The notes below the pieces were generated by a model. The model was not told where the DNA came from. It worked only from the letters and a program-made list of their open reading frames with translations, and did no database searches. A DNA stretch of 64,000 nucleotides, taken from the sequence record OQ873415.1; one strand, given 5' to 3'. Source of the stretch: Escherichia phage PECP20. The translations under genes and the position numbers were made by a program. Of the stretch, positions 34,032 through 35,553 are shown in pieces; position 1 is the stretch's first letter, and every line of letters starts with the position of its first letter.

Positions 34032-34658
34032 TTACTTACGAGTTTTTGCATACTGAGCAGCGTCAGCAGCCAAACGACCTGCTTGTCGAAGTTTTTCTTT
34101 AATCTCATCATGAAGTGGTTGAGTATACTTCAAACCTTCGATAGTCAAATAAAGACGATAAAGGTCTGGGGTATCAAGGTTGTTGATATGTTGGCCATTA
34201 CGAAGACTATTGAATTCACGAACGAGTGAAGATGTATCAGATTCAATATCACGAACAAGCGAAGATAGTTGTTTATATTTTTTTTCCAGGCTAGAAGTAT
34301 CAAACTTAAGAGCAGGAGCTTTAGGAGTTGCTTTTACTTCCGGCTTAGGCTCAGGTTTTGCTACTGCTTTAGGGGTCGCAGGTTTAGGAGTGGTAGGAGC
34401 AGGTTTTACTTTAGGCGAACCAGATTTAGCAGAAACACCACCACTAACAATATCTTTGAATGCTTTAGAAGCTCTGTAATATTCTTTTTGGCTGGAAGTG
34501 TCGATACCGTACATGGCTTGAACGTTTTTGAAAAACTCTGTACTAGTTTTTGTACCAGAAATAGCATCGTAAGCAGCTTGCCATTTCTCTTTTGTCATAC
34601 GTACACCGGCTTCGGTGATTACTTCCGTTTCGGCTAAAAATTCATTAAAAGTATACAT
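34032..34658 (-). CDS. Internal-protein-like head protein (208 aa) with capsid-targeting N-terminus (MYTFNEFLAE...) and Pro/Lys-rich low-complexity core
   Basis: Capsid-targeting consensus; preceded by late promoter TATAAATA. Confidence 0.55.
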   Translation of the reverse strand: MYTFNEFLAETEVITEAGVRMTKEKWQAAYDAISGTKTSTEFFKNVQAMYGIDTSSQKEYYRASKAFKDIVSGGVSAKSGSPKVKPAPTTPKPATPKAVAKPEPKPEVKATPKAPALKFDTSSLEKKYKQLSSLVRDIESDTSSLVREFNSLRNGQHINNLDTPDLYRLYLTIEGLKYTQPLHDEIKEKLRQAGRLAADAAQYAKTRK

Positions 34659-34693: not shown

Positions 34694-34701
34694 TATTTAT
34701 A
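34694..34701 (-). promoter_or_regulatory. T4 late promoter TATAAATA for the internal-protein gene
   Basis: Exact octamer on the minus strand about 35 nt upstream of the ATG. Confidence 0.6.
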
Positions 34702-34702
34702 C

Positions 34703-34731
34703 AAAAAAGCCCCAACCTTTCGGAAGGGGCT
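34703..34731 (-). terminator. Intrinsic terminator (GCCCC stem, then TTTTTTG) ending the tRNA/small-RNA transcription unit
   Basis: Hairpin plus U-run on the minus strand. Confidence 0.6.
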
Positions 34732-34740
34732 ATATACCTT

Positions 34741-34900
34741 GTCGGGGTTTCCACCTACTAGGTAAGTGTTTGTACGAAACGCCGGGATTCGAACCCGGTT
34801 ATTAAGCAGTTGACGCTACTCAATATTTTTAAAAGGCCATATCTCTACCATATCCGAACGTCCCGTCAAAAACGCTACTCGGCTTACGGCAAAGATATTT
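34741..34900 (-). ncRNA. tRNA-like element with canonical T-arm (CCGGG-TTCGAAT-CCCGG) but no canonical acceptor stem; possible small stable RNA or tRNA remnant
   Basis: T-loop consensus at complement(34781..34799); I could not fold a full cloverleaf; sits in a 330-nt non-coding stretch. Confidence 0.3.
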
Positions 34901-35033
34901 CCTCGAATCGATAATTCTGTGCGCCGTTTCTGCTGTGATGTAAGGGGATATTAACGAATCATAAAGATTTATTAAGACCAGTCCCTACTCAGGGAACATC
35001 AGTCCGACGACTTGCCGGTAGCGACCCGGCTTC

Positions 35034-35378
35034 TTATTTTGGCATATCATCAATTTGCTCTCGACGCCGACGCCATAGATTAATCGCTTCATAGGCACAT
35101 TCTGCGTTTGGTATATGACGGCAATAATATAATGATTCGCGTTTCTGGAACCGATGTTGTAATGGAATTTCGTTTAAAAGGTCTTTACGGTCAAAGTATT
35201 CAAAACTAGTTAACCCAGAACGGTTTTTAAGAAACTTCCAATGTCCGAATTCATTTTGAACATAGATGTAATCGGCATGCTGATACAGCGAATTAATCAA
35301 TCGATGAGAAATAACTGTATCATATTCGTTAAAATAAAACGTTAAATCATGAACTACCAGATAAATATTGCCTTTCAT
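35034..35378 (-). CDS. Hypothetical protein (~114 aa)
   Basis: Internal ATG with GAGGAAAAT ribosome-binding site; track start is TTG and would run into the tRNA. Confidence 0.45.
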   Translation of the reverse strand: MKGNIYLVVHDLTFYFNEYDTVISHRLINSLYQHADYIYVQNEFGHWKFLKNRSGLTSFEYFDRKDLLNEIPLQHRFQKRESLYYCRHIPNAECAYEAINLWRRRREQIDDMPK

Positions 35379-35396
35379 ATTTTCCTCACTTAAAGT

Positions 35397-35473
35397 TGGT
35401 CGAGACAGAAGGATTCTAACCTTCAACCTACGGATTAGAAGTCCGTTGCTCCATACAATTGAGCTATGCCTCG
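35397..35473 (-). tRNA. tRNA-Arg (anticodon TCT), CCA encoded
   Basis: Hand fold: acceptor CGAGGCA/TGTCTCG, D-arm GCTC...GAGC, anticodon stem ACGGA/TCCGT with loop CTTCTAA, T-stem GAAGG/CCTTC, discriminator A plus CCA. Confidence 0.75.
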
Positions 35474-35479
35474 AATATA

Positions 35480-35553
35480 TGGCCCAGACCAGATTCGAAC
35501 TGGTAACCTTTCCCTTATGAGGGGACTGCTGCTAACCATTGAGCTACAGGGCC
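35480..35553 (-). tRNA. tRNA with anticodon CAT (Met, or Ile if lysidine-modified)
   Basis: Hand fold: acceptor GGCCCTG/CTGGGCC (one U-U mismatch), anticodon loop CTCATAA, T-arm ACCAG-TTCGAAT-CTGGT; no encoded CCA. Confidence 0.7.

Follow-up and report, generated by a model that had tools for sequence, protein, structure and literature searches.

Besides its tRNAs, bacteriophage T4 encodes two small RNAs, species 1 (rnaC), which we take to be ~140 nt in size, and species 2 (rnaD), and to our knowledge neither has had a known function for about fifty years, since the 1970s. In T4, the tRNAs and both RNAs, species I and II, are made as a single precursor of ~1.75 kb, with termination after species I (PMC2330249). 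RNAC and RNAD are counted among the late RNAs, and a Northern blot has shown RNAC (PMC9697503). Here, we analyzed the tRNA region of Escherichia phage PECP20 (OQ873415.1) within a stretch of 64,000 nt (hereafter, the window), whose affiliation is that of a T4 relative of the Mosigvirus type. An earlier sequence-only reading had described this locus as a reduced set of tRNA genes followed by a tRNA-like remnant. Our analysis indicates that the remnant very probably consists of intact rnaD and rnaC genes, and that rnaC is a tRNA-shaped RNA whose two inner arms are locked together by loop-loop pairing.

Identity of the non-coding region

The sequence-only reading had placed a perfect T arm within a non-coding region of about 330 nt, and this was borne out: the open reading frames (ORFs) that were mechanically listed for this stretch are of 37 aa and 34 aa only, and none is credible. 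It had left two options for this region, a decayed tRNA or a small stable RNA analogous to the T4 species 1 and 2 RNAs. The latter was right, yet understated, as the genes are orthologous. A 351-nt stretch matched 806 phage records in BLAST, among which RB27 and RB9 annotate the match as rnaC/rnaD. The feature tables of RB27 and T4 (NC_000866) place rnaD (species 2 RNA) and rnaC (species 1 RNA) directly after tRNA-Arg, and alignments with both phages are colinear from rnaD through rnaC, a trailer hairpin, and a terminator. The comparison with the T4 rnaC/rnaD region, proposed beforehand as a check, thus recovered colinear orthologues.

The window rnaC is identical to T4 rnaC at 139 of 142 aligned positions. 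Only three base changes separate the two, at 34862, 34846, and 34807; in arm I, one of them replaces an A-U pair by G-U, and in arm II, one replaces a U-A pair by U-G. As in T4, rnaC is the last gene of the tRNA transcription unit, ahead of the trailer hairpin and terminator. T4 rnaC is annotated as a misc_RNA (T4s001, 139 nt) with the same position and strand logic, and T4 rnaD (T4s002, 119 nt) shares with the window copy its 5' hairpin, its closing stem, and its place just upstream of rnaC. The genes rnaC and rnaD of this locus are thus already known T4 genes, rediscovered, and we are highly confident of their identity and of the fold described below.

No Rfam family matches rnaC, and public records label the locus in several ways. 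The phage 55 record lays a 94-nt 'tRNA-Lys' over rnaC (1735-1828 of its locus), the PG7 record a 95-nt 'tRNA-Met' (1551-1645 of its locus), and G53 (1644-1772 of its locus), along with many other records, places hypothetical-protein coding sequences (CDSs) over the RNAs.

Fold of rnaC

Homologues of rnaC were collected from the T4 and Mosigvirus groups, Gaprivervirus, Moonvirus, Karamvirus, Kanagawavirus, Gelderlandvirus, Marfavirus, and Jiaodavirus. Structure statistics were obtained from a covariance-model alignment of 29 distinct rnaC sequences representing at least nine genera, with 500 shuffles and slid controls. A covariance model built in this analysis reached the Jiaodavirus form at 82.5 bits (E about 1e-17), and our own rnaC model scores the window copy at 160 bits.

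Given 22 sequences and no input model, RNAalifold predicted a cloverleaf with compensatory changes in 26 of 41 pairs. In the 29-sequence model, 92.7% of cells are paired and 34 of the 50 pairs have changed on both sides, a level that none of the 500 shuffles attained; slid controls were 34-47% paired. The window rnaC on its own folds into the same cloverleaf, with a minimum free energy of -53.2 kcal/mol (z = -4.9). The sequence-only reading had found no complete cloverleaf here. This stands for a canonical tRNA, none being detected by ARAGORN or by the Rfam tRNA model at E <= 10 in 34700-35040, but not for the region as such, which holds the complete, non-canonical cloverleaf of 137 nt listed in Table 1. 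Two outcomes had been set beforehand as speaking against that reading, a canonical tRNA recovered by a covariance model or nothing RNA-like at all, and neither came out.

The acceptor stem of rnaC abuts the T stem directly (alignment columns 2-8/138-144 are contiguous with T-stem columns 121-125/133-137, which enclose a 7-nt loop) and carries a tandem U-U in its middle. In Jiaodavirus, the stem is perfect (CGGUAUG/CAUACCG), the tandem U-U being replaced by U-A/A-U. Covariation is seen at pairs 3-70 and 51-63, and pair 3-70 is A-U in 13 and G-C in 16 sequences. Arm I has about 19 bp, three internal loops, the first of which contains a conserved GG, and the terminal loop UUGACG. At the 5' end of rnaC, C1 is preceded by U-1 and an AAUUAU-type spacer, and in five other genera the gene is flanked by tRNA genes and follows a CCA and a 6-nt spacer (AAUUAU, AAUAAU, AAACAA, and similar). 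At its 3' end, U73 is followed by ACA in the window and by an encoded CCA in two genera, Marfavirus and Jiaodavirus. The modeled structure is that of a tRNA mimic.

The motif GAGTAGCG, described earlier as repeated, does occur twice on the minus strand (34880..34873 and 34821..34814), within the 5' strands running up to the kissing loops, but not beyond chance: the expected number for the window is 0.71, and at least two copies turned up in 15 of 100 shuffles. We rejected the repeat as a significant motif. The first copy is missing in the Gelderlandvirus, Marfavirus, and Jiaodavirus forms, and pairing of GAGTAGCG with the rnaD loop CGCUA had no support above chance.

Pairing between the terminal loops

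The terminal loops of arms I and II (loops 1 and 2) occur in three covarying versions: UUGACG/CGUCAA, UUGGCG/CGCCAA (Marfavirus), and UUGCAG/CUGCAA (Jiaodavirus). The 6-bp loop-loop helix is 100% paired in 29 of 29 sequences. Pair 47-106 is AU in 22, GC in six, and CG in one, while pair 48-105 is CG in 28 and AU in one, so that two positions have been compensated, in two independent lineages. These counts are direct comparative evidence for the predicted pairing of loops 1 and 2. Because the terminal loops of arms I and II would pair with each other, no anticodon would be displayed.

In Kanagawavirus, the GG in the internal loop of arm I reads CG and the UUC of the T loop reads UGC (GU in 27 sequences, CG in two); the T loop is UGCAUGC in this genus and UUCGAAU or a near variant (UUCAAAU, UUCGAGU) elsewhere. 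The changes, which come from a single lineage, keep a possible tertiary contact of the G18/G19 type and give a weak hint of it.

Distribution

At least nine phage genera have kept rnaC. In six genera it is present without rnaD; in Dhakavirus, rnaD is present and rnaC is precisely missing, and in phage P896 (Gaprivervirus) an ORF takes the place of rnaC. rnaC and rnaD are independent modules.

A loose pattern with both loops and the T loop fixed matched 59 loci and gave no new family members; the new loci were rejected as chance matches in coding DNA or as ordinary long-arm tRNAs. Scans of metagenomes and IMG/VR in which the loops were left free returned only two loop versions, both already seen, and the third version came from the covariance-model search of tRNA regions in other genera. 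Across 185,579 bacterial and archaeal species genomes, the scan gave one match, which the covariance model rejected, and no host or prophage copy was found.

Comparison with tRNAs and tRNA-like RNAs

rnaC shares with canonical tRNA (RF00005) a 7-bp acceptor stem abutting a 5-bp T stem, the UUCGAAU loop, a single discriminator base before CCA (encoded in two genera), placement in tRNA operons after a short spacer with U-1, and a GG dinucleotide available for docking on the T loop. It differs in its length of 137 nt, in the absence of a D arm of normal size, in the tandem U-U of the acceptor stem, and in having neither a 5-bp/7-nt anticodon arm nor a conserved anticodon; arm II has 10 bp and a 6-nt loop in place of the 5-bp stem and 7-nt loop of an anticodon arm, and the loops of the inner arms pair mutually. 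The only match from the tRNA clan over rnaC was to tRNA-Sec, at 34774-34866, with 15.2 bits against a gathering score of 47.

The tRNA-like domain of tmRNA, the bacterial Y RNA YrlA, and the 3' tRNA-like structures of plant viruses likewise combine an acceptor/T-arm mimic and a CCA-type end with a non-tRNA body, and they are handled by tRNA-processing enzymes. rnaC is not known to share sequence similarity with any of them, and its body is a pair of kissing hairpins. ARAGORN reported no tmRNA and no Rfam tmRNA match fell over rnaC; unlike tmRNA, rnaC has no G3-U70 (pair 3-70 is A-U or G-C) and no tag reading frame. The only YrlA match, 14.5 bits and below threshold, lay over the true tRNAs and not over rnaC.

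Features of rnaD

The window rnaD is 83.5% identical to that of T4 and 89.7% to that of RB27, and its 6-nt spacer to rnaC is kept. The RNAalifold and RNAfold predictions agree with a 5' hairpin, GCCGG-GUCGCUA-CCGGC in the window and (G/A)CCGG-GUCGCUA-CCGG(C/U) across relatives, whose closing pair covaries (G-C versus A-U), followed by an invariant stem, GUCGUCG/CGGCG(C)AC, enclosing the remainder of the RNA. The long central hairpin of ~60 nt exists in three unrelated versions among relatives, of which the window has the T4 type. These versions cut across genera, Tequatrovirus HMD-9 sharing one with Dhakavirus IME540, a pattern that suggests cassette-like exchange of the central part by recombination.

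The 3' end reads CACAG in the window, with no CCA encoded, versus CACCA in T4; T4 itself is alone in encoding a terminal CCA. A tRNA-like acceptor/T-arm arrangement in rnaD was considered and rejected: the terminal invariant stem and the T-arm-like sequence of the 5' hairpin are all there is, and their connectivity is not tRNA-like. In T4, 1 nt separates rnaD from tRNA-Arg, whereas in the window a 114-aa ORF lies between them and rnaD does not directly follow the tRNA. Mosigvirus relatives have the same arrangement; the ORF is a lineage insertion and no evidence against orthology.

Dhakavirus MX01 and IME540 carry an extra 70-nt segment (about 435-505 of their loci) between tRNA-Arg and rnaD. 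It ends in CACCGGCGCA(A/C)CAAAC, resembling the rnaD 3' end GAAACGGCGCACCGAAC, and could represent a partial duplicate or else a third small RNA. A convergent single-nucleotide polymorphism (SNP) in rnaD has been reported to arise as a T4-like phage adapted to a new host (PMC12685909).

The two tRNA genes

In the whole window, ARAGORN, and Rfam at the gathering threshold, identified exactly two tRNAs, both on the minus strand, and nothing else. The earlier count of two intact tRNAs (Arg-TCT and one with anticodon CAT), versus eight in T4, was therefore correct. RB69 presumably belongs to the same genus as PECP20. Two tRNAs have been reported for RB69, versus eight in T4 (PMC1524935). The reduced complement is thus real but no peculiarity of the window, since RB69 has the same count and the closest Mosigvirus records annotate the same Met(CAT) and Arg pair.

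The CAT tRNA has the acceptor stem GGCCCUG/CUGGGCC, in which U6 stands opposite U67, a non-pair in the Rfam alignment, and its A73 is followed by UAUAUU, so that no CCA is encoded; the sequence-only reading had seen both features. Compared with the annotated T4 tRNA-Ile, 72 of its 74 bases are identical, and the T4 gene likewise has A73, U6-U67, no encoded CCA, and the pairs C4-G69 and C5-G68. The two substitutions lie in the T loop (UUCGAAU in the window, UUCAAAU in T4) and at position 71 (C in the window, U in T4). Since T4 tRNA-Ile has both the mismatch and the missing CCA, we regard these as ancestral traits of a working tRNA and not as decay. As judged from its sequence, the CAT tRNA is the orthologue of T4 tRNA-Ile, presumably modified with lysidine and reading AUA: it joins a CAU anticodon to an Ile-type body (T4 orthology, C4-G69, C5-G68). 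ARAGORN labels it Met because the anticodon is taken as unmodified. Lysidine conversion has been shown in a vibriophage tRNA(CAU) (PMC13191261), and a CAU tRNA bearing the signature of lysidine-modified tRNA-Ile is retained in all T4-like genomes that have tRNAs (PMC1524935). Some T4 tRNAs need the host CCA-adding enzyme, according to Deutscher et al. (1974) as cited in PMC11143913.

The tRNA-Arg is strongly diverged from that of T4. It is of the Mosigvirus/Gaprivervirus type, with a T loop of UUAGAAU and an A at position 56, which is normally C. Its D loop has a single G in the window and no GG in phage 55 and G53. The T and D loops together point to a non-canonical elbow contact. The two tRNAs decode AUA and AGA, which are used 11.6 and 7.8 times per 1000 codons in window ORFs; both are among the rarest codons of E. 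coli, where they are several-fold rarer.

Layout of the locus

Many Mosigvirus genomes, among them NHEP10, phage 55, and G53, match a 941-nt region at 94-98% identity, and these three records annotate the same pair, as tRNA-Met(cat) and tRNA-Arg, and the same 114-aa ORF. On the minus strand, the gene order is tRNA-Ile(CAU), tRNA-Arg(UCU), the 114-aa ORF, rnaD, rnaC, the trailer hairpin, and the terminator (Table 1). The whole series is one minus-strand transcription unit.

Table 1 Features of the tRNA and small-RNA locus in the window
Feature	Position	Strand	Basis or remark
tRNA, anticodon CAT	35553..35480	minus	ARAGORN; Rfam tRNA 57 bits
tRNA-Arg (TCT, reads AGA), CCA encoded	35473..35397	minus	ARAGORN; Rfam 67.6 bits
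114-aa ORF (phrog_3355), function not assigned	35034..35378	minus	ORF list; PHROGs E = 2.6e-50
Untranslated stretch, ~330 nt	ORF stop codon 35036..35034 to terminator 34730..34703	minus	ORF list
rnaD orthologue (T4 species 2 RNA)	about 35037..34918	minus	83.5% identity to T4
rnaC orthologue (T4 species 1 RNA)	34911..34773, T4-equivalent	minus	97.9% identity to T4
rnaC tRNA-like frame, 137 nt, non-canonical cloverleaf	34910..34774	minus	RNAalifold, pair counts, single-sequence fold
Acceptor stem of rnaC, 7 bp	34910-34904 (CGAUUCG) with 34781-34775 (CGUUUCG)	minus	
Arm I, long irregular hairpin replacing the D arm, ~70 nt	34903..34834	minus	
Loop 1 (UUGACG), terminal loop of arm I	34864..34869	minus	exact reverse complement of loop 2
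Arm II, 10 bp and 6-nt loop CGUCAA, replacing the anticodon arm	34825..34800	minus	
Loop 2 (CGUCAA), terminal loop of arm II	34810..34815	minus	exact reverse complement of loop 1
T arm CCGGG-UUCGAAU-CCCGG, perfect, canonical	34798..34782	minus	
U73 of rnaC	34774	minus	
Trailer hairpin CACUUAC-CUA-GUAGGUG, conserved, 3' of rnaC	34752..34768	minus	read from alignments
Intrinsic terminator GCCCCUUCC-GAAA-GGUUGGGGC then UUUUUU	34703..34730	minus	sequence; annotated terminator in G53

The 114-aa ORF, which lies between tRNA-Arg and rnaD and is annotated as a CDS in the Mosigvirus records, has no counterpart at the same position in T4 or RB27, and it ends with a stop codon that overlaps rnaD at its T4-equivalent 5' end. 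Searches of Pfam and PHROGs with this inserted ORF and both flanking genes yielded no known function for any of the three. Gaprivervirus P896 has a different, unrelated ORF at the junction of tRNA-Arg and rnaD, and T4 has segB one gene upstream. Junctions in the tRNA/stable-RNA operon look like insertion hot spots.

The trailer hairpin of T4 (CACUUGC-CUUG-GCAGGUG) is one compensated pair apart from the window version. The hairpin is kept in Dhakavirus and in phage P896 despite the missing rnaC; it looks like a conserved element in its own right and might signal processing or stability. The terminator ends the tRNA/stable-RNA transcription unit. A consensus terminator scan of the window did not list it, which we attribute to the tandem U-U mismatch inside its stem. 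The same scan lists a terminator-like site on the plus strand at 35014-35030, where the rnaD 5' hairpin reads in reverse complement and TTCTTATTTT follows; this site may be a side effect of the RNA gene or a stop acting in both directions. Directly past the terminator, at 34694-34701 on the minus strand and 36 nt upstream of the ATG of the next gene, stands TATAAATA, which we take to be the T4 late-promoter consensus. The next gene (34658..34032, phrog_2280) has a Pro/Lys/Ala-rich middle.

Discussion

The analysis establishes orthology to T4, the rnaC cloverleaf, the covarying loop-loop complementarity, and the position in a tRNA operon. The locus is in itself an ordinary find: the known tRNA-Ile/tRNA-Arg pair of RB69-like phages together with the known T4 rnaC and rnaD. 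Four other explanations of the small-RNA region were weighed against this reading. A decayed tRNA gene, of which only the T arm survives and which has no function of its own, was the option that the sequence-only reading carried in the word remnant. It agrees with the fact that neither ARAGORN nor the Rfam tRNA model calls a canonical tRNA at rnaC, and with the 8-20 tRNAs that relatives have in the same region, which imply tRNA gene loss in the lineage. All four arms of the cloverleaf are intact, however, rnaC is conserved across genera, and T4 RNAC, seen by Northern blot, is reported as a stable RNA; rnaC is 97.9% identical to T4, while tRNA-Arg is strongly diverged and rnaD stands at 83.5%. 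Compensatory changes in 34 of 50 pairs across at least nine genera do not fit relaxed constraint. Since the covariation is deep and rnaC is near-identical between T4 and the window phage, neutral decay is excluded, and we give the pseudogene practically no credence.

It is very unlikely, too, that the 3' 94 nt of rnaC (34866..34773) form a genuine, if unusual, tRNA with an 8-bp acceptor stem (ACGGGACG/CGUUUCGU) and a long extra arm. Annotations of this kind in phage 55 ('tRNA-Lys') and PG7 ('tRNA-Met', 95 nt), the weak tRNA-Sec match (34774-34866, 15.2 bits), and the fact that the stem can pair in 85.8% of cells speak for it. Those annotations, however, conflict on the amino acid, Lys versus Met, and the T4 gene is annotated as 139 nt, not 94. 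The 8-bp stem shows no compensatory change, scores under all 500 shuffles, and fails in Gelderlandvirus, Marfavirus, and Jiaodavirus, where the 3' strand covaries with the 5'-terminal strand instead; the candidate anticodon loop has 6 nt rather than 7 and is complementary to loop 1. Equally little speaks for the structures being a cis-acting 3' untranslated region that stabilizes or terminates the mRNA of the upstream ORF. The stop codon of that ORF does overlap the T4-equivalent start of rnaD, and the whole unit ends in one terminator, but T4, RB27, and other genera keep the RNAs without an ORF there, rnaC elsewhere lies between tRNA genes, and the T4 RNAs are released as discrete species. 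We also consider it improbable that rnaC and rnaD are trans-acting, base-pairing regulators whose tRNA-like shape serves only operon processing and stability. Both are abundant late RNAs in T4 and have been termed 'small regulatory RNAs', without evidence (PMC9697503); rnaC keeps an A/U-rich single-stranded linker, UUUUAAAAAUA, rnaD keeps the invariant segments GGACUGAUGUUCCCUG and AUCACAGC, and an rnaD SNP was selected in host adaptation (PMC12685909). Against this, complementarity and joint covariation link the most conserved loops of rnaC to each other, as expected of mutual pairing and not of an external target.

Several points weigh against intact rnaD/rnaC genes with a tRNA-shaped, loop-locked rnaC. 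In T4, the GenBank rnaC starts 1 nt upstream (U-1) and ends 1 nt downstream (A74) of the frame proposed here. In T4-like lineages, the 3' acceptor strand can also pair with an internal segment, ACGGAACG (85.8% of cells across the alignment), and rnaC may have a second conformer there. The loop-loop covariation amounts to two independent lineage events and fits intramolecular as well as intermolecular pairing. In nature, rnaC can be dispensed with, being missing in Dhakavirus and ORF-replaced in P896, and rnaD has no tRNA-like feature beyond its terminal stem. The ends of rnaC, its CCA addition, its modification, and its partners are predicted, and the function of RNAC and RNAD is stated as unknown wherever we found it addressed in the literature (PMC9697503, PMC3014915, PMC12685909).

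If rnaC is the tRNA-shaped RNA that the alignment describes, its precursor would be cut by RNase P at U-1/C1, and its 3' end would be trimmed and given a CCA by the host CCA-adding enzyme, yielding 137 + 3 = 140 nt, which matches the size of species 1 RNA given above. The mature RNA would be a tRNA mimic that shows the acceptor/T-arm face and no anticodon, and it could occupy a protein that recognizes the acceptor/T-arm shape of tRNA, for example a host tRNA-directed defense or processing enzyme. We tentatively propose, as one possibility, that rnaC is a decoy or competitor against a tRNA-recognizing host factor and not a decoder. We favor this role because phage tRNA genes counter tRNA-cleaving defenses, as with Septu and tRNA-Tyr (PMC13096335), and because the rnaD SNP arose convergently in host adaptation. 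A purpose-built decoy, processed as a tRNA would be (RNase P, CCA addition, T-loop modification) and with its anticodon arm permanently closed by the kiss, is a more speculative proposal that we hold to be rather unlikely; such a decoy would titrate or misdirect a tRNA-cleaving defense nuclease, or a processing or charging enzyme. The patchy distribution among genera, the location among tRNA genes, and the host-adaptation SNP in rnaD are compatible with it, as is dispensability in the laboratory.

Annotation pipelines routinely miss rnaC and rnaD or mislabel them as "hypothetical protein", "tRNA-Lys", or "tRNA-Met". What is added here is a comparative structural model in which rnaC has a definite build, shaped like a tRNA, ending in a CCA-type terminus, and with two arms that kiss. 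Together with the tRNA-like maturation that it would imply, this putative model makes the old question of the function of these RNAs more testable and experimentally approachable. If rnaC were indeed a purpose-built decoy, it, and perhaps rnaD, would be RNA-based anti-defense or host-takeover genes.

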